From a virus (taxonomy: Duplodnaviria > Heunggongvirae > Uroviricota > Caudoviricetes), in IMG/VR virus record IMGVR_UViG_2648501338_000019: a DNA stretch of 23,612 nt, one strand, 5' to 3'. A model generated the notes under the pieces. The model was given only the letters and a program-made list of their open reading frames with translations, was not told the DNA's origin and searched no databases. The position numbers and the translations under genes were made by a program. Position 1 is the first letter of the stretch; each line of letters begins with the position of its first letter. Below are positions 1 to 19,885 of this stretch, one piece after another.

Positions 1-351
1 ATGCGAGAGACAGTCGAAATTATGCGTTATCCCGTCACTCTTACACCCGCGCCGGAAGGCGGTTATATGGTTTCTTTTGTGGATATCCCTGAAGCGTTGA
101 CCCAGGGCGAAACTGTCGCTGAAGCGATGGAAGCGGCAAAAGATGCTTTACTGACCGCATTTGATTTTTATTTTGAAGATAACGAGCTTATCCCGTTACC
201 TTCGCCATTAAATAGTCACGATCATTTTATTGAAGTACCTTTGAGCGTCGCCTCTAAGGTATTGCTGTTAAATGCTTTTTTACAGTCAGAAATCACTCAG
301 CAAGAGTTAGCCAGGCGAATTGGCAACCCGAATGTAGTCAACCCCAAATAA
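1..351 (+). CDS. hicB: HicB-family antitoxin, N-terminal (HicA-binding) domain only; C-terminal DNA-binding domain absent. Likely true start is the ATG at 22 (MRYPVTL...)
   Basis: Translation MRYPVTLTPAPEGGYMVSFVDIPEALTQGETVAEAMEAAKDALLTAFDFYFEDNELIPLPSPLNSHDHFIEVPLSVASKVLLLNAFLQSEITQQELARRIG matches my recollection of E. coli HicB nearly residue for residue; it then diverges (NPNVVNPK, stop) at about nt 322-330 where a full HicB would continue into its DNA-binding domain. Confidence 0.7.
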   Translation: MRETVEIMRYPVTLTPAPEGGYMVSFVDIPEALTQGETVAEAMEAAKDALLTAFDFYFEDNELIPLPSPLNSHDHFIEVPLSVASKVLLLNAFLQSEITQQELARRIGNPNVVNPK

Positions 352-574
352 CTAAAAATTTTGCAATAAAAAGCCCCATCACAAGGACAAGGCTTAGAAA
401 TCAACTAATTAACATAGTTTCCAGATCAAAAGGGTTATAATGAAATCCATAAAAGGTGATCTGTTAGCTGGGTGCTGTATATCTAAAATGTTACTTAATT
501 AATATCGTTCTGGTGGTTAGCTTTCATCGCATCCCACCAATCTTTTGTGATCTTCATGTTATTGAATTTCATAA

Positions 575-1342
575 TTATTTGCACCCGTACTGGTCAATGT
601 ATGTTCTTGAATATTTTTTATGTACTTCTAAGCGAATCATATCTTGATTATCACGCCACACATAATATTTTTTGTTATCCACTTGGCCTTCATATTGCAT
701 TGCGCCATTCTGATGCGTCACTGTTTTTGTCTTTGCTTTATGCGCGTCATAATTATCACGATACACAAATTCAATAATTTCCCCGTCTTTTACTTTAAGT
801 TTAAGTTCACCAGAGTTATAACGAGGATAGCCAATGTCTTTAACTGCTTTTGTTTCTACCCCGTCTTGGATTTCCCAGCTATAGTGAACATCGCATTGCA
901 ATGTCATGTCTCCGGTAAATCCTTTTGGTTTATCTTCAACCTTCGGTTCTTCCACCACTTTTTCTTCCTGTTTCGGTTGTTCTTCTTCAACCTTCGCAGA
1001 AGTCTCTGAAACGCTCCCTGACGCGGTTTCTTCTTTAGATAATACATTCATCAAGTTTTGGATTTGAGCGTTGTATACAGCCTCCAGTGGCTGAATCTGC
1101 CCGATATTGATCATTGTGTCACGAACAGTTTTATTCCAGTTACGTTGCTCTTGTTTAAGAGACGGATTAATCTTAACAGCCTTAACATATACTTCATGAA
1201 GTTTAGAATCCAGTGCGGAGATTGACTCATTAGCACAAATAAACTTCTCTGATTTGGTAGTAGCCTTAGTGCAATCAAAGGACGCAGCATCAGCACCGAA
1301 AGCAGTAGCAGAAAGCATGATAGCAGCGATAATGTTTTTCAT
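575..1342 (-). CDS. secreted protein with N-terminal signal peptide and LprI/DUF1311-like domain, E/K/P-rich linker and a C-terminal beta-rich domain
   Basis: ORF of 255 aa; N-terminus MKNIIAAIMLSATAFGADAAS resembles a Sec signal peptide; FDCTKATTKSEKFICANESISALDSKLHEVY...QRNWNKTVRD resembles the DUF1311/LprI fold; SD AAGAGGT upstream of the ATG on the minus strand. Confidence 0.55.
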   Translation of the reverse strand: MKNIIAAIMLSATAFGADAASFDCTKATTKSEKFICANESISALDSKLHEVYVKAVKINPSLKQEQRNWNKTVRDTMINIGQIQPLEAVYNAQIQNLMNVLSKEETASGSVSETSAKVEEEQPKQEEKVVEEPKVEDKPKGFTGDMTLQCDVHYSWEIQDGVETKAVKDIGYPRYNSGELKLKVKDGEIIEFVYRDNYDAHKAKTKTVTHQNGAMQYEGQVDNKKYYVWRDNQDMIRLEVHKKYSRTYIDQYGCK

Positions 1343-3223: not shown

Positions 3224-4267
3224 TTAAGCTGCGTAGGCGTAGGCGTAGGCGTAGGCGTAGGCGTAGGCGTAGGCGTAGGCGTAGGCGCTGTAGTTGGTGT
3301 CATAGATAGCGTCATGCAGTGCCATCTGTGCTTCGCGGATCTCGTCTTCGTTTACTTCAATCTCTTCTTGTTCTTCTTCGGTATCTTCCCAAGTGGTTTT
3401 GAATTTAGCCATAAAGTTATTGCGCAGGGATTCAAAGTTAGTAACAGGTGCGGATTTTTCTTCAACCGGAACTACTACCGGATCAGCTTCTTTCTGTTCT
3501 TCCTGTCCTACTTTTTCACCGTTACCCCAGCGATAGTTAAGGAGTTCTTCCAGTTCTTCATCAATGGATTTTTCTTCAACTGCTTCAACTTCAACCGCTG
3601 CTACTTCGAAAGTGGTTTCCTGCGCTGCCAGTTCAGCTTTCAGAGATGCGTTTTCAGCTTCCAGTTCAGCAATGCGTGCTTTCAGTGCTTCAACTTCGGA
3701 AGATTCAACCACTGCAACTTCTTCTTTAACTTCTTCAACTACTACCGGAGCAACTTCTTTCTGTGCTTCTTTTTTGCAGAAGAAGGAGGAAGTAACCTGT
3801 AATGCGTGGTTGTAGAAGGAACCGCCTTTAGCGGTGTTAACAGTACCAGAAACATCCTTTACAGTGGATTCAGTAGCAACAGTACGGAAGCGTTTTGCAA
3901 CTTCCTGGGTCTCTACGCCGTATTCGTTACGCTTGCTCTTGTGATGCATTACAGCACGGAAGCCGGAAGCAGTTTTAATAACAGCGAGATAGTAAGTTTC
4001 ATCGGCTTTAACAGCACGAGCGAAGCAATAAACGGATTCACCTTCTACCAGTGTAGGTTTAACGTGACGTTTGTCGAAACGGTTAGTGATCTGCCATTCA
4101 GCACCGTCTTTGATGCCAGCATTCTGACGCATTTCGGTCAGAGTCTTACCGGATACTACTTCAAAGGATTTGTCTTGTTTGCTTGCTTTACCTTCCATAA
4201 CGGTAATGTTCAGTTTGCCGTTGGATTTGATGAATAGGTTGAAGGTGATGCGCTTAGAATTTTTCAT
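3224..4267 (-). CDS. hypothetical protein (347 aa): N-terminal globular domain, acidic linker, leucine-zipper-like coiled coil, acidic region and a C-terminal (Ala-Tyr)9 dipeptide repeat
   Basis: Good SD (AGGAG) 11 nt upstream of the ATG on the minus strand; sensible amino-acid composition, whereas the overlapping plus-strand ORF 3197-3802 is a Phe-rich low-complexity antisense artefact; coiled coil EALKARIAELEAENASLKAELAAQ. Confidence 0.6.
   Translation of the reverse strand: MKNSKRITFNLFIKSNGKLNITVMEGKASKQDKSFEVVSGKTLTEMRQNAGIKDGAEWQITNRFDKRHVKPTLVEGESVYCFARAVKADETYYLAVIKTASGFRAVMHHKSKRNEYGVETQEVAKRFRTVATESTVKDVSGTVNTAKGGSFYNHALQVTSSFFCKKEAQKEVAPVVVEEVKEEVAVVESSEVEALKARIAELEAENASLKAELAAQETTFEVAAVEVEAVEEKSIDEELEELLNYRWGNGEKVGQEEQKEADPVVVPVEEKSAPVTNFESLRNNFMAKFKTTWEDTEEEQEEIEVNEDEIREAQMALHDAIYDTNYSAYAYAYAYAYAYAYAYAYAA
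3231..3284. repeat. perfect hexanucleotide microsatellite (GCGTAG)9, which encodes (Ala-Tyr)9 at the 3' end of the minus-strand gene
   Basis: Nine uninterrupted GCGTAG units read directly from the sequence, followed by a degenerate unit GCGCTG. Confidence 0.95.
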
Positions 4268-4383
4268 TTATAAATACTCCTGAATGCTGTGTTAGTTTTA
4301 ATTGTTCATTTCAAGTCTCCTTTGCTGCAACAAGGGAGGCTTTTTATTTTTAAAGCCATCATATAATTCTCAGTGAAAGTGGA

Positions 4384-4563
4384 TTAACAAACTTGAACGT
4401 TAATCTTTACCTGAATTTCGTATTTCTTCATTAGCTTATAGAATCCGCTTCTATCAATCCCTTCCTTCTTAAAGAAGTTTTCCCCGCCTCGCTCAGTGTC
4501 GCTGTAAAACCGTTTAGCAATATCAACAATCATTTCACGAGTAAATTTAACAGGTCTAGCCAT
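4384..4563 (-). CDS. small HTH DNA-binding protein (59 aa from the ATG at 4563; the ORF track extends it to a GTG at 4578)
   Basis: MARPVKFTREMIVDIAKRFYSD...GIDRSGFYKLMKKYEI has a resolvase/transposase-type HTH signature; SD GAGGAA 9 nt upstream of the ATG at 4563. Confidence 0.5.
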   Translation of the reverse strand: MARPVKFTREMIVDIAKRFYSDTERGGENFFKKEGIDRSGFYKLMKKYEIQVKINVQVC

Positions 4564-4905
4564 AAATCGATTCCTCACATGTGGATTAATAATTCCTTAA
4601 AAAAGAGCTTTTCGCTCTGAACAATTCTATTTATAAAAATGATTTTCAAAAACTCTGTAAAACAACTGTATATCCGATCAGTGGGAGCACGAATTGCTAA
4701 AGAGAAGATTAATAATTAATCAATTCGTACAATATTCGACCGAAAAAGCACTGCATATCTAACCAGTGCTGTATGAATTAACAGTTAGTCAAGGGATTTT
4801 CAGAAGTGAACAATCATTTTTCATGCATTGTATTTATACACGAAAAATCATGCTTATCATCTATATGGGGATTGTTTGGAAAATTTCAACCCCTACCAAG
4901 GATAA

Positions 4906-4936
4906 AAAGTATAAAATAGTTCTTGACACATGTCAA
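4906..4936 (-). promoter_or_regulatory. candidate sigma70 promoter firing leftward (-35 TTGACA, 17-bp spacer, -10 TATACT); the -35 lies inside the inverted repeat TTGACA-CA-TGTCAA
   Basis: Hexamers and spacing read on the minus strand; the inverted repeat places a second TTGACA on the plus strand, which suggests an operator or divergent promoter. Confidence 0.4.
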
Positions 4937-4964
4937 CATTCATGATCTAAGCGAGAAAGGTGTA

Positions 4965-5133
4965 TCAAAATTTTTGTTTGAAAATGGCAAATAATGATTA
5001 TCAACCTTTTAAACCTTATATGGCACGGAGATCTTTTGAAAATTTCTTTTAAATCATGAATTTACATCTATTTTTGGTGGTTTTTTGGTTGAATAATATA
5101 CAAGAATTTTTTGTCAAAATTTTTGATTGAAAA
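4965..5133. repeat. AT-rich region with two copies of the 20-bp direct repeat TCAAAATTTTTG(T/A)TTGAAAA (4965-4984 and 5114-5133) and related A/T tracts
   Basis: Seen directly; lies immediately upstream of the iteron array. Confidence 0.5.
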
Positions 5134-5252
5134 CCTACACTACACACCTACCCTTTAAAGGGATTGGCCTACACTACACTAGCCAGTAAACCTACACTAT
5201 AACACCCTCAAACCTACACTATGAAACCTACACACCTACACTAACCCTACAC
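5134..5252 (+). repeat. iteron-like array: 7 perfect plus 1 variant copy of CCTACAC (4 as the 10-mer AAACCTACAC) in about 120 bp, three of them at 22-bp spacing
   Basis: Copies at 5134, 5169, 5191, 5213, 5227, 5235, 5246, with variant CCTACCC at 5147; counted directly. Confidence 0.8.
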
Positions 5253-5597
5253 TTCAATCACGTAAGTGTATGACCTTGAAAGGTATTATACCCCACAGAC
5301 CATAGAATATAAAATTCGAACTAACGTTCTCCTTTTTGCTCGCTTTCTCTCACTACGTTCAAGAAAGATCTCGCAAAAAGAATACGGCGTAGCCGTGCGC
5401 GTAGCGCCCACCAACACCTTCTAAGACCTGCAAGCAGGATTCGAAAGGGATTGATAGTTCGCTTCGCTCACGTTCACGCCTACGGCGTTCACTCACTTTT
5501 AAAAGGATTTTCTTAGAAAGGGATTTAATACTAGTTACTAACTGATTCTAGTAAACGAACGAAGTGAGTAACAATCAATTTCTAGAAAGGTATTGGT

Positions 5598-5626
5598 ATC
5601 CCTTCGGGATTGCAACCTTCGGTTGC
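5598..5626 (+). other. two adjacent UUCG-loop hairpins (ATCCC-TTCG-GGGAT and GCAACC-TTCG-GTTGC) in non-coding DNA; possible RNA 3' end or processing/stability element
   Basis: Perfect stems seen in sequence; no overlapping ORF; not followed by a clean T-run. Confidence 0.35.
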
Positions 5627-5867
5627 TAAATTGCTTCCTGATTATTATTTCTTCAAAAGAAAGATTCTTATATTCTAAAGATACTTCTTCGTTTTGATGA
5701 TGATTTAATCAAATCTATGAAGGGGGGCTTTAGCCCGACTGAATCCAATCATCTTTCAAGTACAGACCAGTTTTGGACTCTACCAGATCACTCTTTTCAT
5801 AATAACAAGAATTTTCTCTTTATAAATAATATTAGATTGATTCGCTTTCTTTTAGAGGATTTCCACT

Positions 5868-6335
5868 ATGAACCATAAAATGACTACCACTACTCCTTTC
5901 ATCCTGTTAGGTTTTGATGCTGATAGCTTCCACAATGACAAGTTAATGAAGATCTTTGTTGAACGTGGTTACAACATTCTTTTCAACTCTGATGAATCTC
6001 ATTTCTCTAGTGTATGGTATGCGTTTTGCCGTAATAAGAAGCCGACCATTGTTGTTAACGTCTTCACCGATGAAGGCCGCTTAAAGTACCAGAATATTCC
6101 AGCGATCATCGTTAGCGAATACCTTCCTTTCGAAGTCCGTTCCGGTGATGTTGATCTGGGTAGCTTCTTTACTCTTCAAGAACTGGATGAAGCAATGTTT
6201 AACTACGGCAAAGAAACCGCTCAGAAAGCACCAGAACGCGATGAAGAAGACGAAGATGATGATGACTACGCACCAATCGCTTTTTCTTCTCACGGTGGCT
6301 TCTACGGTTACGATGAAGGCTTAGATATGCTGTAA
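5868..6335 (+). CDS. hypothetical protein (155 aa) with a strongly acidic C-terminal segment (ERDEEDEDDDDY)
   Basis: ATG preceded by AGAGGAT SD; no family recognised from sequence. Confidence 0.55.
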   Translation: MNHKMTTTTPFILLGFDADSFHNDKLMKIFVERGYNILFNSDESHFSSVWYAFCRNKKPTIVVNVFTDEGRLKYQNIPAIIVSEYLPFEVRSGDVDLGSFFTLQELDEAMFNYGKETAQKAPERDEEDEDDDDYAPIAFSSHGGFYGYDEGLDML

Positions 6336-6457
6336 GTTAGGTCAACCCTTTGGCATCTTGTCAAGGGGTATTGGCAAAATTTTCAGACTTTTTTATGATT
6401 ATCGCACTTGACAACTTTGAACTGATTTGACCTAGGTTTGTAAAGAGGATGTGAACT

Positions 6458-8526: not shown

Positions 8527-10431
8527 ATGAAACTGATTTCTAATAAGGCCAAATTAAAAAAGATTCTTAAAAATATCTCTGCGGCAATTCGCCCACCTAA
8601 AACGATGAAACCTAGCGAATGGGTAGAGGCTAATGTAGTTGCAACCGATGGTGTTAAAGCCGGATCTCTAATTAAGTTGCATCCCTTCCAACGTGGAATG
8701 ATGGACGCGATCACCGAAGATAGGCGAAAAATTGTGCTAAAGTGCTCGGCACAGTTGGGTAAAACTCTTGTGCTAAACGGTATTATCTTTCACAGGATCG
8801 CCAGTAACCCTACTAATATCGGTGTTTTGCAAGCGAACGTTCGAGAATTGAACTCATGGATTGCGGGTAAGGTGAAGCCAGTATTAGAGGCAACCCCAGA
8901 ATTAAAGGCGATGATCACCGACAAATCAGATCGCAATGCCGTTAACAACTCATCGATTATTCAGCTTCGTAACGGATCATTCATGTATTTCATGTCGCTG
9001 AACAGTCCATCACACTTGCGCGGTAAGACACTGCCTTTGATTATTCTGGATGAAGTTGATGCGGCTGATGAGTCAGACGAAGGGAACCCGATCCAGCTAG
9101 CGGAACAACGCGCAACCACTTTCGGTGATGATGCAAGGATCGTAATTGCTTCTACTCCAACTTCGCGGGATGGGGCGATAAACCAACAATGGGAACTCTC
9201 GGATAAAAGAAAATACCACGTCGTTTGCCAGCATTGCGGACACAAACACGTAATGGAATGGAGTAGAGTATTCTTTGATTGGCATGTAATCAATGGTAAA
9301 TCACTGCCGAATCCAGACACAGCCGTTTACCGTTGCCCGTCATGTGAAACTGATTGGTCAGAACCAGATCGCCTCCGTGCTGTTGCTCAGGGAGAATGGG
9401 TCGCCACCGAACCAAATGCGGAAGTAATCGGTTTTCATGCTAACCGCCTTATGTCTCCGTTTAGTTCTATCCGTGCGTGTGTGGTGGACTTTGCTGATAG
9501 CTACGCGAATATGTCACTGGCAACGTTCTATAATGTGGTGCTCGGTGAAACCTTCGATGATCTTAACGAAGACCGCACAGCCGACGAACTGGAAACGCTG
9601 AAAACTGACATTAGCTTAGATAATATTCCTGATGATGTTCTGGCTCTGGTAGGTGGAGTTGACCAGCAAAAAGACCGTCTGGAATCTACCTTGCTGGGTA
9701 TCTCTCGTAAGGGGATATGCGTAGTTGATCACCGATCATTCTATGATGTGAACTGCGAACGCCACGAATCGCCAGCATATGACCAGCTTTACAACTTCCT
9801 GAAAGCTAAATTCTATACCCGATCAGGTCAACGAATCCCGATGCTATCTGCTTTCGTGGACTCATCGAACGGACGAGCTACAAACGTGATCTATCGCTTC
9901 TGCACTAGGTGGCAAAACCTATGCGCCATTAAAGGGGCAAGCAATGTTGATGCTCCAATCCTTCCGGTCAAGGACACAAGAACGGGTGGTTTTACTCTTA
10001 AAATTCTGGGCGTAAACAACCTTAAGACGATGATCCGTGAAATGATTAACCGGAACTTGAGAGACAGCGATCCTCATACGGTCTTCCAGATTGGTGACGT
10101 TCCTGATGACTACTGCGAACAATTGTTATCTGAACAGTTGAAACGGCAGGGTAATACCACACGTTGGGTAAAAGTTGGTCAGCAACGAAACGAGGCTCTC
10201 GACTGCCTGGCTTATTCCTATGCTGCTTCTCGCCATGTACTCAATAAAATGTCATGGGAAAAACTCGAAGCCATCAAAGATAGTTTGAACCGCGAACCAG
10301 AAGAACCCGTAGAAGCTCCTAAATCGCAATCTGACGAGCAAATCGAAGAAAATAAGCCAATCACACGACCACAACGTAAAAACATCGCCAGACGCCCAAA
10401 TAGAGGCCGTAGCTGGGTAACATCGTTCTAA
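8527..10431 (+). CDS. terminase large subunit, lambda GpA family
   Basis: 634 aa; Walker A-like KCSAQLGKT, Walker B-like LIILDEVD, and overall length and layout like lambda gpA (N-terminal ATPase, C-terminal nuclease); strong SD. Confidence 0.9.
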   Translation: MKLISNKAKLKKILKNISAAIRPPKTMKPSEWVEANVVATDGVKAGSLIKLHPFQRGMMDAITEDRRKIVLKCSAQLGKTLVLNGIIFHRIASNPTNIGVLQANVRELNSWIAGKVKPVLEATPELKAMITDKSDRNAVNNSSIIQLRNGSFMYFMSLNSPSHLRGKTLPLIILDEVDAADESDEGNPIQLAEQRATTFGDDARIVIASTPTSRDGAINQQWELSDKRKYHVVCQHCGHKHVMEWSRVFFDWHVINGKSLPNPDTAVYRCPSCETDWSEPDRLRAVAQGEWVATEPNAEVIGFHANRLMSPFSSIRACVVDFADSYANMSLATFYNVVLGETFDDLNEDRTADELETLKTDISLDNIPDDVLALVGGVDQQKDRLESTLLGISRKGICVVDHRSFYDVNCERHESPAYDQLYNFLKAKFYTRSGQRIPMLSAFVDSSNGRATNVIYRFCTRWQNLCAIKGASNVDAPILPVKDTRTGGFTLKILGVNNLKTMIREMINRNLRDSDPHTVFQIGDVPDDYCEQLLSEQLKRQGNTTRWVKVGQQRNEALDCLAYSYAASRHVLNKMSWEKLEAIKDSLNREPEEPVEAPKSQSDEQIEENKPITRPQRKNIARRPNRGRSWVTSF

Positions 10432-16384: not shown

Positions 16385-19300
16385 ATGCAATCAATCCAAT
16401 TTAAACGCACACAGACGGCGGGTAAAAAACCAACGCCGGAACAATTATCACAGGGTGAAATCGCCTTACAGTTGGCGGATCATGTGATTTACACCAAAGA
16501 CAAAAATAATAACGTAGTCCAAATTAGTGTTTCTCCAGAAAAACACGCTGAACTGAATACGAAAGTAGACAATAACAAAACTAGCACTGACCGTGTTATT
16601 GCTTCCAACAAACAAGAAGCCGCTAATAATCTGGCTAGTGCTAAAGCTGAACTGAATCAGACTATCACTTCTACCCGTGATGCTCTCAATGCTTCAATCA
16701 CTGCTGGCGACACCGCAGCCAACAAACGAATTGATGCTTTGACTACCACAGTAGGTAACAATAAAACCGAAGCGGCTAACGCTCTGGCGGCTGCTAAGAC
16801 TGAACTGAATCAGACTATTACTTCAACCCGCGATACTATCAACGCAACAATTAACAAGAACAAGACAGATATTAATGCACGAGTTGATCAGACTAATACC
16901 AACGTTACTAACTTAACGAATACTGTCTCAGCAAATAAATCAGCCATAGAAACGACCGTAGCAAATAATAAACGCGATGCCGACACGAAGATCACCAATC
17001 TTACGGGGACAGTTAATAGCAACCATACAGCAATTAACAACAAGGTAGACCAGAATAAATCTTCTACTGATGCCGCAATTGCCGCAGCTAACCAGCGAAT
17101 TGATTCTATTGAAGGTAGTGCCGATGCTGCTTACATCAAGAAGAATACCAACACTTACCATCACGGCTATCTGTTAACCAAAACAGCTAACTATTTTGAT
17201 GATGCTGGTGCTCGTAACCTTGATTATTTTGGTGCATTCCGTCCAAACAATGCCGAAGGTTGGGGTAACTTAATCCTTAACATTCCTCATTCTGGCGGTA
17301 AAGCACACGGTCGCGGTTTTGAGTTCCACTATGGGTCTAGCTCATCTCAAGTTAAAACCTATGGCTTTGATAAAGATGGTAATAAGCGATTCAGCTACCG
17401 CATGTATCACGAAGGTGATAAGCCGACTCCGACTGAATTGGGTGTGTATAGTAAAGCCGAAGTTGATCAGATGTTCATCAAGAACGTTAGAATGACCGTT
17501 CCTTCTGGTGATGCTACTCGTGGATACTTCAAGATCGCAACCGCTACGATCCCACAGAATGGTCGAATGGTAATGCTTCGTATCTTCGGTGGTAATGGTT
17601 ATAACGTTAACTCTTATGATCAGGTTGACTTTGTAGAAATTGTCATCCGTTCCGGTAACAATAACCCGAAAGGCGTTAGTATTGCTGCTTATCGTCGAAA
17701 TGCTCTGAACGTTCATCAAGTATTTGCGGTTAATACTTCCGGTGATAACTACGATATCTACGTTAACTACGGTCGTTACACCGATAACGTTATTGTCGAA
17801 TACGGTAAAACTGATGGCGTTACTCTGACAGTACATGATGTTCCTGAATTAACTCTCGTTAAACCTTCTGTTGGTGTTACCGATGCTCGTGTTATTACGA
17901 TGTTCAACACCGAAAACAAAGCCGGAACGTTGATGTTTGATAATAACTCACAAGCAACCTATGATATTGTGAGCCTTAATAACGTACCAGACAACAATAA
18001 AAAATATATGCGTAAATTCCGCAGTCGTGCGGCGGAAACAATATGGCATGAAACTGTTCAAGGTGATGTGTATCGTTTGGCTACTGGTTCCACCGACCAA
18101 AAAGAAGTATTAAAAATTGTTGGTAGTGATGGTTTATTTGTCGATAGACTTCATCTGCAAGGCAATAACGCGATTCGTATGTGGCGTCCTACTGGTCGTA
18201 GTAACTATTTTGAATATATGGATCAGCGAGACGGGGCTAATAAACGTCAAGGCTGGTTTGGTTTTGGTTCTACAGATACTAACGATTTTCAATGGTATAG
18301 TGACGAAGGTAAAAACTTTGTTAAATTAGAAGCAAGTGGTCAAGTATCTTTAAGCACAGGTGCTACCAAAATTGTATACACCAATGGTCAATATGTAGCT
18401 GCTAACAGTGATGCATTCCGTATGATTTACGGTAACTATGGTGCATTCTGGCGTAATGATGGTCAAAACGTATATCTTCTGTCTACTGCCGAAAATGATA
18501 AATTTGGTGGTTGGAACGGCTATCGTCCATTCATTTACAATCTGGGTAGCGGTAATGTTACTTTGGGTGGTGATGGTAACGAAGGTGCATTAGTCTTAGA
18601 ACGTGCAAGTCGTGCTGCTCGTTTTGCTGGAAACACATACATTAAAGGCCAATATTTAACATTTGATGCTGGTGCTGGACAATCCCGCGACTATTTCCGT
18701 TTGAGTCATTGGGGCGATAGCAATAACGCTCGTGATAACGTTATACAGCTTGAAGATAGTAAAGGTGCTCACTTCACCACTGAACGTACTTTAGCAACTG
18801 GTGCGATTAAAACTAAATTCTTCGGTGATTTGGAATCTGCTGGTCTGATTCGCTGGGGTAAGGGTACAGCTACTTCTAGTTTCAATATTCGTGCATGGGG
18901 CGCTGATGCTCGTAAACAAGTATTTGAATGTGCTGATGAAAGCGGTTGGCATTGGTATACCCAACGTCCGGGCGGTCCGGGTACTACGGCAATTGAGTTT
19001 GCCATCAACGGTACTGTTAAGCCTCAAGCAATTCACACTGGCGGTAATATCACGCTTAACGGTGCTGATATTGAATTTAAGCGCACTGGTAATAAGCATT
19101 TGTGGTTTAGAGATCCGAATGGCTTAGAACTAGGTTTGATGTATTCCGATGATGCTGGTGTTATTCGCTTCCGTGGTCAGAAACAAGCCCAGACGTGGAA
19201 ACTTGCGGATAAGATGATCCAGTTGGAATCTGGTACTGTAACCGGTGGCGGTAATGGCCTGATTCGTGGTGAAGTTGCTGGCGGTAGTTGGGCTAGCTGG

Positions 19301-19885
19301 CGTGACCGTGCTGCTGGTCTTATGGTTGGGTGTCCTCAATCCACCAACTCGGCACATAACGTATGGAAAGCGACGCATTGGGGTAAATATCACATTGCAG
19401 CAATGGGTGTGCACGTTCCTGACGGTACTATCGGTAACGCTCTTGTTCGTCTCCATGTTCATGATACTAACTTTGACTTTAACGCTGCTGGTGACTTTAC
19501 CGCAGGTCGTAACGGTTCGTTTAACGATGTTTACATTCGCTCTGACTCCCGTTTGAAGATTAACAAGGAAGAATTACAGGACGGCGCATTAGAGAAAGTA
19601 AACTCACTGAAAGTCTACACCTACGATAAAGTTAAATCTCTTAAAGACCGTAGTGTGATTAAACGCGAAGTAGGTATTATTGCTCAGGATCTGGAAGAAG
19701 TATTGCCGGAAGCAGTAGGTATTCAATCCACCGAAGATCCAGAAAATCCAGAAGCAATCAAGACTATTTCTAACTCTGCTGTCAATGCTTTAATCATCAA
19801 AGCTATGCAGGAAATGGACGCCAAATATAAAGCCCAGATCGAAGCATTACAGAAAGAAATTGCCGAACTGAAAGCAACTAAATAA
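16385..19885 (+). CDS. long fibre protein (1166 aa) with a tandemly duplicated N-terminal rod segment and a C-terminal intramolecular chaperone (peptidase S74-like) domain
   Basis: C-terminus RSDSRLKINKEEL...VYTYDKVK...GIIAQDLEEVLPEAV matches the autoproteolytic chaperone domain of phage fibres and tailspikes; N/T/S-rich beta-type sequence in the middle. Confidence 0.85.
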   Translation: MQSIQFKRTQTAGKKPTPEQLSQGEIALQLADHVIYTKDKNNNVVQISVSPEKHAELNTKVDNNKTSTDRVIASNKQEAANNLASAKAELNQTITSTRDALNASITAGDTAANKRIDALTTTVGNNKTEAANALAAAKTELNQTITSTRDTINATINKNKTDINARVDQTNTNVTNLTNTVSANKSAIETTVANNKRDADTKITNLTGTVNSNHTAINNKVDQNKSSTDAAIAAANQRIDSIEGSADAAYIKKNTNTYHHGYLLTKTANYFDDAGARNLDYFGAFRPNNAEGWGNLILNIPHSGGKAHGRGFEFHYGSSSSQVKTYGFDKDGNKRFSYRMYHEGDKPTPTELGVYSKAEVDQMFIKNVRMTVPSGDATRGYFKIATATIPQNGRMVMLRIFGGNGYNVNSYDQVDFVEIVIRSGNNNPKGVSIAAYRRNALNVHQVFAVNTSGDNYDIYVNYGRYTDNVIVEYGKTDGVTLTVHDVPELTLVKPSVGVTDARVITMFNTENKAGTLMFDNNSQATYDIVSLNNVPDNNKKYMRKFRSRAAETIWHETVQGDVYRLATGSTDQKEVLKIVGSDGLFVDRLHLQGNNAIRMWRPTGRSNYFEYMDQRDGANKRQGWFGFGSTDTNDFQWYSDEGKNFVKLEASGQVSLSTGATKIVYTNGQYVAANSDAFRMIYGNYGAFWRNDGQNVYLLSTAENDKFGGWNGYRPFIYNLGSGNVTLGGDGNEGALVLERASRAARFAGNTYIKGQYLTFDAGAGQSRDYFRLSHWGDSNNARDNVIQLEDSKGAHFTTERTLATGAIKTKFFGDLESAGLIRWGKGTATSSFNIRAWGADARKQVFECADESGWHWYTQRPGGPGTTAIEFAINGTVKPQAIHTGGNITLNGADIEFKRTGNKHLWFRDPNGLELGLMYSDDAGVIRFRGQKQAQTWKLADKMIQLESGTVTGGGNGLIRGEVAGGSWASWRDRAAGLMVGCPQSTNSAHNVWKATHWGKYHIAAMGVHVPDGTIGNALVRLHVHDTNFDFNAAGDFTAGRNGSFNDVYIRSDSRLKINKEELQDGALEKVNSLKVYTYDKVKSLKDRSVIKREVGIIAQDLEEVLPEAVGIQSTEDPENPEAIKTISNSAVNALIIKAMQEMDAKYKAQIEALQKEIAELKATK

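Follow-up and report, generated by a model that had tools for sequence, protein, structure and literature searches.

Between the two divergent early operons of an Escherichia coli prophage, as these are recognised by sequence comparison, lies a long stretch of DNA (positions 4579–5867) that appears to carry no gene, and the question is what such a stretch does. Positions are those of the window, by which we mean the whole 23,612-nt stretch of DNA that was analysed. The initial annotation saw in this region a structured non-coding RNA locus, a control region, or both. From the comparison of its sequence with that of its relatives we consider that the region is not a gene and that it probably serves a temperate phage as its hub for early control and replication. 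The suggestion of a control region agrees with what is found there: conserved putative LexA boxes, a promoter close to the consensus, an AT-rich segment, iterons that co-vary with a protein and a promoter-like cassette ahead of the rightward operon. This reading would provide a testable map of how an unstudied family of E. coli prophages is switched on and copied.

That the stretch is truly long and non-coding, as had been stated, is confirmed by the relatives: no ORF within it is conserved and its size is kept at 1227–1449 nt in 21 distinct variants. It contains three ORFs of at least 50 residues (4766–4945, 5717–5878 and 5266–5424), and the first two have a frameshift or a stop in most relatives. 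The third, of 52 residues, was rejected as a hidden gene; it starts with GTG, has no ribosome-binding site, is frameshifted in one relative (L010) and is intact only in DNA that is almost invariant, and the other variant types lack it. RefSeq annotates nothing inside the stretch in any of the 58 genomes that carry the prophage.

The prophage is ~35 kb long and sits in hicB, where a serine recombinase encoded at its far end has inserted it. Its large terminase subunit is of the lambda gpA type and its portal is also lambda-type, and the element is temperate and siphovirus-like. Of 5426 complete E. coli genomes, 58 (~1%) carry a member of the family, O55:H7, ETEC and STEC strains among them. We found no cultured relatives, and scans of genome contigs gave none outside Escherichia; two metagenome matches (L041 and L047) were dropped as chance matches to a 20-mer. 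Megablast and blastn searches of phage and plasmid collections with the region found no match except for a 75-nt element in RB49-like phages (see below), and our literature search found nothing on the region's sequences or on the hicB prophage. No replication gene is recognisable in the prophage, nor does it encode a helicase, a helicase loader or a primase.

The genes that flank the stretch are

4384–4563 (or 4578), minus strand: 59- (or 64-) residue protein, first gene of the leftward operon, with an alternative GTG start at 4578
5868–6335, plus strand: 155-residue protein, start of the rightward operon

The leftward operon encodes the 59-residue protein, a 347-residue protein and an 80-residue coiled-coil protein, and the rightward operon comprises the genes for the 155-residue protein, a 50-residue protein and Rha/anti-repressor. 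Searches of Pfam, PHROG and NCBIfam with the eight small flanking proteins returned nothing usable. Read by eye, the 59-residue protein looks like a resolvase/Hin-type helix-turn-helix protein (GIDRSGFYKLMKKY), a likeness with no family match behind it; its gene has at least four alleles.

Predicted control elements of the left part

In the part of the stretch next to the leftward operon (4579–5133) the following elements were located:

4604–4618, minus strand: leader hairpin of the leftward operon, AGAGC-GAAAA-GCUCU, then U6
4625–4644: TTCTATTTATAAAAATGATT box, a direct repeat of 5814–5833, with TATAAATA on the minus strand (4628–4635)
4664–4683: putative LexA (SOS) box 1, AACTGTATATCCGATCAGTG, a CTG-N10-CAG match of 13.7 bits
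4749–4768 and 4767–4786: putative LexA boxes 2 and 3, overlapping by 2 nt, of 15.0 and 20.8 bits
4908–4936, minus strand: predicted sigma-70 promoter, TTGACA-17-TATACT, with 11 of the 12 consensus positions

CTG-N10-CAG is the consensus of LexA sites, and colicin operators carry two overlapping SOS boxes (PMC2994835), as boxes 2 and 3 overlap here. The scores come from a matrix built from ~20 E. coli sites, which themselves score 12.9–27.2 (median 21.5), and the predicted boxes fall within the range of these genuine sites; 100 shuffles of the window gave nothing above 19.1 bits. Three of the four best matches in the 23.6-kb window lie within 4664–4786. The positions of the three boxes are also the top three matches in 21 of 21 variants, where CTG and CAG are retained and the spacer bases drift, and at least one of boxes 2 and 3 scores 17–21 bits in every variant.

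The relation of the boxes to promoters is less simple. Box 1 abuts a weak −35 (TTTACA, 4656–4661), with which the TTCTATTTATAAAAATGATT box is likely to form the −10 zone of a leftward promoter. Boxes 2 and 3 lie 15 nt after a TACAAT without a good −35, and the near-consensus promoter at 4908–4936, set within the palindrome TTGACACATGTCAA (4923–4936) and with both hexamers conserved in all variants, is ~115 nt from the boxes. A convincing promoter could not be placed squarely under the LexA boxes, and in this the region differs from LexA-controlled elements. The leader hairpin, which is conserved in the relatives, looks like an attenuator or terminator.

Several phages make direct use of LexA, among them GIL01, CTXphi and coliphage 186 (tum gene). 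Direct use is plausible here too, because the prophage has no gene for a CI-type self-cleaving repressor (compare GIL01, PMC4551915), but unlike GIL01-like systems no gp7-like LexA helper protein was identified in it. In a lysogen, host LexA would hold the early promoters shut; DNA damage would remove LexA and the leftward operon, with the 59-residue, 347-residue and 80-residue proteins, would be expressed.

The sequence TATAAATA precedes both divergent genes as well as the Rha gene. It was considered as a T4 late promoter and the idea was dropped: the window has five copies compared with 1.6 expected, a count reached in 5 of 100 shuffles, and no gp55-like factor is present. We treat its copies as ordinary AT-rich −10 boxes.

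Iterons and the 347-residue protein

The features that bear on replication are

4954–5133: AT-rich segment, a candidate DNA-unwinding element, bounded by two 31-nt repeats
5134–5253, plus strand: iteron array, eight direct copies of CCTAC(A/C)C at a spacing of 8–23 bp
3224–4267, minus strand: gene of the 347-residue orphan protein, ~900 bp to the left of the iterons with one gene between
3743–4267, within this gene: N-terminal domain of ~175 residues, which an acidic coiled-coil linker joins to a C-terminal domain that assorts separately

The AT-rich DNA (4950–5170) has a GC content of 27–30%, and the 31-nt repeats at its borders (4954–4984 and 5103–5133) share a conserved core, TCAAAATTTTTGNTTGAAAA. 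CCTACAC occurs seven times in 5134–5252 and 11 times in the window, compared with 1.3 expected, and the copy number of the iterons shifts by units of 22 nt in two relatives (L008 and L014). Other relatives have one of three unrelated iteron types instead, almost all on the same strand and with spacings of 11 and 21–23 bp; over all types the arrays hold eight to fifteen same-strand repeats.

The type of iteron is matched by the type of the N-terminal domain. CCTACAC iterons are always found with the N-terminal type MKNSK and TTGCCCCTGAAA iterons with MLFSAN; likewise CCCCAAGATTCCAC iterons are always found with MKNVK and TCCCCG iterons with MKQNN. The four iteron types and four N-terminal types pair one-to-one, without exception, in all loci that carry both. 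The C-terminal domains and the alleles of the 59-residue protein assort independently of this pairing; one relative (L019), for example, has the 59-residue allele of the window together with type-2 iterons and a type-2 N-terminal domain. Among type-1 relatives (those with the iterons of the window) third-codon identity in the gene of the 347-residue protein is 97%, and the iterons together with the block to their right are 91–99% identical. The DNA between gene and iterons is 83–87% identical, and in the portal and capsid genes identity at third positions is 81–87%. The gene and the iteron-plus-block DNA thus share one recent history, with the intervening DNA at the neutral level. That iteron type and N-terminal domain co-vary while the DNA between them recombines freely points to an origin and its own initiator. 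We therefore put the 347-residue protein forward as a candidate iteron-binding replication initiator, whose N-terminal domain would give the specificity. If the co-variation reflects binding, the protein would represent a new origin-binding family with four specificities to compare. In one relative mcr-1 adjoins the gene.

The layout is a familiar one. Same-strand direct repeats beside an AT-rich segment are found at lambda ori with its O protein and in the oriV of the iteron plasmids RK2, R6K and RSF1010, as here. Lambda O is modular, with a DNA-binding N-terminal domain, a linker and an exchangeable C-terminal domain. Among lambdoid O proteins the DNA-binding domain changes with the repeats and the second domain is exchangeable, which is the pattern seen in the 347-residue protein. 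By analogy, the N-terminal domain would bind the iterons, the adjoining AT-rich DNA would open and the exchangeable C-terminal domain would recruit host replication proteins. The short opposite-strand hairpins beside the iterons recall ssiA and ssiB of RSF1010. There are also differences. Unlike lambda ori, the origin proposed here lies outside the initiator gene, ~900 bp away and across another gene, and unlike known iteron origins it has no DnaA or IHF sites and is not accompanied by a phage-encoded helicase, loader or primase. The origin part contains no DnaA box, the nearest match being TAATCCACA with one mismatch at the left edge of the stretch (4580–4588), and the single match to an IHF site in the region is conserved in none of the relatives. 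CTAG-rich repeats were rejected as a second iteron family, with three copies in the window's block compared with 2.7 expected.

Could the iterons be operator, centromere-like or handcuffing sites of a regulatory 347-residue protein, with replication starting elsewhere? The co-variation by itself would show specific binding only and not replication, immunity regions too are typically variable in their specificity types, and DnaA and IHF sites are absent. The protein moreover has no match in Pfam, PHROG or NCBIfam and no similarity in sequence or fold to O, RepA, TrfA, Pi or RepC; an HMMER search of 1.8 billion representatives gave three real homologues of the N-terminal domain, and homologues of the protein come from Escherichia and Shigella only. 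Against this, eight to fifteen same-strand repeats beside a segment of such low GC content are the classic layout of an origin, the prophage offers no other candidate replication gene or origin, and the domain structure of the protein parallels that of lambda O. We judge such a purely regulatory role to be quite unlikely and retain the iterons as the putative origin.

Boxes and mini-hairpins of the right part

To the right of the iterons (5254–5867) the stretch is built of modules, namely GAAAGGKATT boxes, hairpins whose loops have three bases, and a promoter-like element with a stem-loop after it. The first two classes comprise

5278, 5443, 5516 and 5585, plus strand: GAAAGGKATT boxes, the linkers between modules, with a variant at 5156
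5332–5350 and 5362–5380: arms of a 19-nt imperfect inverted repeat
5384–5407, plus strand: tandem mini-hairpins ACGGC-GTA-GCCGT and GCGC-GTA-GCGC, C(GNA)G type
5461–5467 and 5476–5488, minus strand: mini-hairpins GCGAAGC and ACGCC-GTA-GGCGT, C(GNA)G type
5598–5626, minus strand: tandem hairpins ATCCC-GAA-GGGAT and GCAACC-GAA-GGTTGC, C(GNA)G type

Most of the repeats listed in the initial annotation are exact, namely the two copies of GAAAGGTATT (5278–5287 and 5585–5594), the two of GCGTAGC (5387–5393 and 5399–5405) and the CGTTCAC repeats (5471–5477 and 5486–5492) that bracket a GCC-TAC-GGC hairpin, the stem of which reaches further, to ACGCC/GGCGT (5476–5488). Two items needed correction. Of three supposed copies of GAAAGGGATTG that at 5443–5453 is exact, and the others read TAAAGGGATTG (5155–5165) and GAAAGGGATTT (5516–5526). 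The tandem hairpins described as having UUCG loops are present (5598–5610 and 5612–5626), but pair best as 5- and 6-bp stems with 3-nt TTC loops and are not UUCG tetraloops.

Both classes are well above expectation. The four GAAAGGKATT boxes, all on the plus strand within 5278–5594, compare with 0.12 expected. Short GC-rich hairpins number seven in 5254–5760 compared with 0.55 ± 0.73 in 500 shuffles, the densest cluster in the 23.6-kb window. Hairpin positions are retained across variants and loops and stems change: at 5384–5407 the loop GTA becomes GAA in relatives with the stem kept, at 5598–5626 TTC becomes TGC in one relative (L008) and is still GNA on the minus strand, and iteron types 3 and 4 have another hairpin, GACGCTC-(T)AGG-GAGCGTC, at the latter position. 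Recombination junctions in the 58 genomes lie at ~5493, ~5585 and ~5639, the borders of modules.

We consider it unlikely that the block 5254–5640 is the source of structured non-coding RNAs, one or several, made in the lysogen or at an early stage of infection. In favour of RNA, the block is 91–100% identical among type-1 relatives and the DNA nearby 83–87%, and its folding energy is well below that of shuffled sequences, with z-scores of −4.2 (plus strand) and −4.9 (minus strand). Two substitutions, C to T at 5343 and A to G at 5495, would leave G-U pairs if the plus strand is read, and hairpin 5384–5396 differs from its GGGC/GCCC counterpart in other types by one compensatory pair; apart from this pair and the two G-U-compatible changes, most stems are invariant within a type. 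However, both strands fold about equally, as expected of DNA palindromes, and the identity within type 1 may reflect recent common descent and not selection, because the gene of the 347-residue protein is equally identical. Rfam gave nothing at the gathering threshold, with chance-level matches only up to an E-value of 10, ARAGORN found no tRNA or tmRNA in the region, and consensus scans found no pair of promoter and intrinsic terminator that would delimit a small RNA. The only long-range stem, which would close a multibranch RNA at 5457–5570 (~5457–5470 with 5555–5570), is lost in L010 and in iteron types 2–4. Stems of 4–6 bp with 3-nt loops are marginal for RNA, and in other iteron types the block is swapped wholesale. 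These results do not support the suggestion of a structured RNA locus; some transcription of the block is conceivable. A 13-nt complementarity between 4451–4463 and 5445–5457 was set aside as near chance (~0.05 by hand estimate for a region of such size).

As the most GC-rich and partly symmetric spot in an AT-rich region, the hairpin cluster might also be read as the cos or pac site of a lambda-type gpA terminase; the large subunit is of that type and no small terminase gene stands ahead of it. We reject this reading as highly improbable, since block type and the allele of the TerL N-terminus assort independently: one relative (L018) combines a different block with the TerL N-terminus of the window (100% identity), and another (L002) has the same block and a divergent TerL N-terminus. 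A distance of 2.9 kb, taken up in part by other operons, also separates the block from the terminase gene.

All five triloop hairpins of the region with stems of at least 4 bp are of the C(GNA)G type on one strand, compared with one of seven outside. With GCGAAGC at 5461–5467, six C(GNA)G/GCGNAGC motifs fall within ~250 nt (5384–5626), compared with 22 in the other 22.3 kb. Iteron types 1 and 2 agree in the strand order of these motifs (two plus, then four minus) and differ in the stems. Hairpins of the C(GNA)G class are known for their stability in DNA rather than RNA, and GCGNAGC mini-hairpins are reported from the complementary-strand priming origins of G4, St-1 and alpha3, from ssiA of RSF1010 and from the N4 early promoters (PMC13037366). 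The identical motif is present here (GCGTAGC twice, GCGAAGC once), on both strands and clustered beside the putative origin.

On these grounds the cluster 5384–5626 could be a working part of the origin, a real if minor possibility in our estimate: after opening of the origin the mini-hairpins would extrude from the single-stranded DNA, resist coating by SSB and act as entry signals for primase or primosome on both strands, in the manner of G4-type origins or of ssiA and ssiB. The loop substitutions GTA to GAA and TTC to TGC preserve G-N-A, and the block lies next to the iterons and follows their type. On the other hand the GNA loop is not universal, since iteron types 3 and 4 have two C(GNA)G motifs each and largely 4-nt loops or other hairpins in their place, GGGC-TTT-GCCC variants are common, and GCGNAGC alone is weakly enriched over the whole window (13 compared with 7.3 expected). 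Homologous hairpin-plus-promoter units in T4-type phages stand at places not known as origins. Nor does the phage, which is temperate and double-stranded, have a dedicated primase or an RNA polymerase of the N4 type, and in this it departs from the systems where such mini-hairpins are reported. Priming by hairpins is compatible with a control region and replication hub; the only reading it would displace is that of the right third as an array of promoters and attenuators. Dense and ordered as they are, the GNA mini-hairpins form a natural test of whether DNA hairpins of this kind take part in the replication of double-stranded phages.

A bolder view combines these features into a previously unseen phage replicon, with an initiator of new DNA-binding fold, interchangeable iterons and an ordered, strand-specific battery of mini-hairpins as priming or loading signals for host enzymes. 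We think this rather unlikely; were it true, the hairpin-plus-promoter units of RB49-like phages could mark origins not yet recognised.

Promoter-like cassette and its homologues in RB49-like phages

The remainder of the right part contains

5638–5736, plus strand: promoter-like cassette, with an AT-rich upstream part, TTGATG (5694–5699), a 16-nt spacer and TATGAA (5716–5721)
5725–5736: stem-loop GGGC-TTTA-GCCC directly downstream of the promoter-like hexamers
5814–5867, plus strand: TTCTCTTTATAAATAATATT box, with TATAAATA at 5821–5828, the Shine–Dalgarno sequence AGAGGA at 5854–5859 and the ATG at 5868

Intergenic elements of RB49-like phages match positions 5638–5721 of the cassette with ~80% identity over ~75 nt. 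In RB49 and phi1 the elements called PeSL (promoter-early stem-loop) combine a stem-loop and AT-rich DNA with a promoter of sigma-70 type before a gene, and the published RB49 hexamers are near-perfect (TTGACA-N17-TATAAT; PMC2839356, PMC4122927). The cassette resembles such a composite and has the same hairpin-then-promoter order as the RB49-like intergenic units, which may themselves be among the published PeSLs. Hairpins upstream (5598–5626) and downstream (5725–5736) of it keep their positions in all variants, and here as there the cassettes that genomes have in common mark joints of modular exchange. It differs from PeSLs in that its host is a temperate prophage and not a T4-type phage, in that several hairpin modules follow one another with no ORF in between, and in that it does not stand directly before an ORF with its Shine–Dalgarno sequence: the promoter-like element is 123 nt from that sequence and the −10 ~130 nt before it. 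Its hexamers are also far from the near-perfect consensus, with a weak −10 that does not end in T and reads TATGAA here and CATGAA in a number of relatives. The homologues in RB49 and KFS-EC (TTGATC-17-TATTAA and TTGGTT-16-TATAAA) have a better −10.

Within the probable control region and replication hub, we read the right third (5254–5867) as a PeSL-like array of promoters and attenuators. Such an array would shield the origin from transcription and start expression of the rightward operon, and its recombination joints would be the places where one origin type is exchanged for another; a further possible role of its hairpins is on single-stranded DNA during replication. The 91–100% conservation of the block within type 1 is more than a mere scaffold for recombination would need. 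On the minus strand the hairpins at 5384–5407 look like a terminator, because ATTCTTTTTG comes next there. The common cassette shows that regulatory DNA, and not genes alone, moves between temperate and virulent T4-type phages. In RB49 and KFS-EC the units lie on the strand opposite to that of their own neighbouring genes.

A gene-free region in a family of E. coli prophages

The region 4579–5867 is flanked by two divergent operons.

Left operon: 59-aa helix-turn-helix-like gene (4384–4563, minus strand), 347-aa gene (3224–4267, minus strand), 80-aa coiled-coil gene
Right operon: 155-aa gene (5868–6335, plus strand), 50-aa gene, Rha/anti-repressor gene

The initial annotation had taken the region to be non-coding, and indeed none of its three open reading frames of at least 50 aa behaves as a gene. 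Two carry a frameshift or stop in most relatives, and the third, which lacks a ribosome-binding site, is intact only where the DNA hardly varies and is missing from the other variant types. The 155-aa protein encoded next to the region matches no known family; its N-terminal half exists in several alleles and its tail is strongly acidic (ERDEEDEDDDDYAPIAFSS...GFYGYDEGLDML). Speculatively, it may be a DNA mimic or a host-protein binder.

E. coli genomes, IMG/VR and metagenomes supplied 21 distinct versions of the region for comparison. All are 1227–1449 nt long and their alignment is a mosaic. The evidence is comparative throughout and comes from relatives that share close common descent; from it we conclude that the region is probably a composite control and replication region. 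The control function proposed earlier is strengthened by conserved LexA-type sites, a near-consensus promoter and an iteron–protein pair, all found by comparison. The reported hairpin density also holds: seven are observed where shuffles give 0.55 ± 0.73, no other part of the window is as dense, and both strands fold far better than shuffles (z = −4.2 and −4.9). A structured RNA gene is the least supported of the options offered in the initial annotation. The motifs listed there lie within 1–2 bases of the positions given, with two corrections: of the three claimed copies of GAAAGGGATTG only one is exact, whereas the relaxed form GAAAGGKATT has four copies against 0.12 expected, and the "UUCG" hairpins, in their best pairing, have stems of 5 and 6 bp closed by TTC triloops.

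The chromosome of E. coli C325 is identical (100%) to window 4300–6400, and 57 further complete E. coli genomes match at 82–96%. These 58 carriers among 5426 complete genomes are chromosomal in every case, and none has any annotation over the region. Over the region, IMG/VR contig 2648501730_000022 likewise shows 100% identity. The element, a prophage of ~35 kb with a large serine recombinase at its end, splits the antitoxin gene hicB, and thereby inactivates this half of the hicAB pair and leaves hicA intact. The window starts within hicB (ORF 1–351; window 1–575; loci L001, L002 and L021), and the second fragment lies at the far end, past the 559-aa serine recombinase. The structural genes comprise a lambda-type gpA terminase, a lambda-family portal, a fused protease–capsid gene and a T4 gp37-like fibre; no close cultured phage was found, the top terminase identity being 43.7%. 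The first ~130 residues of the large terminase (8527–8920) occur as two clearly different alleles among relatives, one in the window, L016, L018 and L019 and the other in L002, making another mosaic joint. In C325 (L001 28267–31101) an IS3-family element truncates the prophage within the capsid gene, which is intact in the window; the window therefore comes from another isolate. In E. coli PE15 (L019 1–1626, NZ_CP041628.1) an ISApl1–mcr-1.1 unit sits ~400 bp past the end of the related prophage's candidate initiator gene, where the window has left-arm genes.

Iterons and the 347-aa protein

The middle of the region consists of a repeat array.

5134–5253, one strand: iteron array, eight copies of CCTAC(A/C)C spaced by 8–23 bp

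Units of 22 nt are gained or lost in relatives. Other relatives carry unrelated repeats in place of the array, TTTTTGCCCCTGAAA (9 copies), ATCCCCAAGATTCCAC (5 copies) or (A/T)TCCCCG (~15 copies), the first two entirely and the last almost entirely on one strand. The N-terminal ~170 residues of the 347-aa protein fall into four unalignable types, each found with one iteron type only, and this one-to-one pairing is, within the comparative evidence, the decisive result. It is not simple linkage, because the 59-aa gene and the left third (4579–5133), which separate the 347-aa gene from the iterons, both recombine freely. The window's 59-aa allele is seen with iteron types 1 (its own) and 2, and allele B with types 1 and 3; the C-terminal domains of the 347-aa protein (ending AYAYAA, NFSYCQ, VRKAA or DFAA) assort independently too. 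Between the window and its relative L002, third codon positions of the candidate initiator gene are 97% identical and the iterons plus the block to their right (~5254–5640) 91–99%, against 83–87% for the DNA between gene and iterons, the same as portal and capsid third positions (81–87%).

Comparison thus establishes a specific pair at the level of sequence, and we conclude that the N-terminal domain of the 347-aa protein probably reads the iterons. The most economical reading would be an origin and its initiator, on the model of lambda O with its ori, because iterons and N-terminal domain match, the neighbouring DNA is AT-rich and the prophage holds no other replication gene; none of its genes resembles a known replication gene or a CI-type repressor gene. 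We infer origin function for the middle part on these grounds. The 347-aa protein itself lends the initiator reading no support: it matches no family, a search against phages gave no hit, only three real homologs occur among 1.8 billion representatives, and the predicted model is of moderate quality (pLDDT 70) and resembles only generic beta-barrels. No conserved DnaA or IHF sites were found.

The 3′ end of the 347-aa gene (3231–3285) is a tandem hexanucleotide, (GCGTAG)n, each unit containing a C-GTA-G motif and the whole coding for an (Ala-Tyr)n tail; in type-1 relatives the whole protein measures 331 to 351 aa, with tails from ...SAYAYAA to ...(AY)n AA. An -AA ending is found in three of the four C-terminal types and speculatively recalls ssrA-like degradation tags. 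Within the 59-aa gene, 13 nt coding for the helix-turn-helix EGIDRS segment (4451–4463) are the perfect complement of the GAAAGGGATTGATAG box (5445–5457), by rough estimate near chance level; other 59-aa alleles have similar partial matches to their own local boxes.

LexA-type sites and putative promoter of the left third

The left third is common to all versions at 80–93% identity, with sharply conserved islands.

4664–4683, 4749–4768 and 4767–4786: CTG-N10-CAG sites in conserved islands, matching the LexA matrix
From 4936 leftward (minus strand): near-consensus promoter TTGACA-17-TATACT, a conserved consensus match
4950–5133: AT-rich segment (27–30% GC) bordered by two conserved 31-nt repeats

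The three sites are among the four best LexA-matrix matches in the 23.6-kb window and rank as the top three in 21 of 21 versions, scores from this matrix of about 20 E. coli sites being indicative only. Across versions the spacer varies while CTG and CAG are kept, so that conservation of these LexA-type sites is evident from comparison. The second and third share two bases, an overlap typical of the LexA boxes in colicin operators (PMC2994835). SOS control of the prophage may be inferred; no good promoter could be placed directly under the LexA boxes, and here the regulatory reading is weakest.

Hairpin modules of the right third and their relatives in RB49-like phages

The right third (5254–5867) is modular, its units joined by GAAAGGKATT-like linkers, and homology breakpoints in the 58 genomes coincide with linker joints at ~5493, 5585 and 5639. 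Hairpin positions are fixed; their sequences differ by type and the loops vary freely (GTA, GAA, TTT, TTTA, TAT, CGAAG). Comparison of sequences thus reveals a modular hairpin array. Triloop hairpins of the C(GNA)G class, on either strand, make up 5/5 in the region against 1/7 outside. The region also holds:

5461–5467: GCGAAGC

Six motifs of this class lie within 250 nt, compared with 22 in the other 22.3 kb. Loop substitutions retain G-N-A, and iteron types 1 and 2 share one strand order (two plus, then four minus) despite differing stems. The pattern has exceptions: types 3 and 4 carry just two of these motifs apiece, with four-base loops or other hairpins instead. GCGNAGC-type hairpins are exceptionally stable DNA structures and occur at the priming origins of G4, St-1 and alpha3, at RSF1010 ssiA and at N4 promoters (PMC13037366). 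In the reading we favour, the right third would be a promoter/attenuator array insulating the origin and starting the rightward operon. A serious alternative, compatible with that reading, is that the mini-hairpins act on single-stranded DNA as replication proceeds. The promoters are putative, the calls in the region being consensus matches. The independent assortment of block type and terminase allele makes a packaging site unlikely.

Window 5638–5721 has counterparts of ~80% identity in RB49-like phages (Krischvirus), in intergenic DNA that carries no annotation. RB49 has two tandem copies in a 413-bp gene-free gap between ORF164c and ORF165c (L020 1396–1808; RB49 97434–97848), both on the opposite strand from the flanking genes, and KFS-EC (L048 820–1021) has one, antisense, between gp35 and gp36. 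In these phages the unit might serve as an antisense early promoter, an origin or a small RNA. The aligned core reads as an AT-rich stretch, TTGNTN, 16–18 bases and a −10; the T4-type copies have a good one (TATTAA, TATAAA), the prophage a poor one (TATGAA or CATGAA). Before the unit, both groups carry CGCTTCGC(GA) and a mini-hairpin with a GTA or TAC loop; in the prophage GGGC-loop-GCCC follows it. This resembles the architecture of the PeSL promoter/stem-loop cassettes proposed to mediate modular shuffling (PMC2839356, PMC4122927). The published RB49 PeSLs have near-perfect hexamers. Two prophage genes match the gp37 region of RB49-like phages at 80–88% DNA identity.

575–1342: LprI-like gene
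16385–19885: 1166-aa tail-fibre gene

This identity indicates recent exchange between the prophage and T4-type groups and points to host-range modules having passed between a temperate and a virulent phage group.
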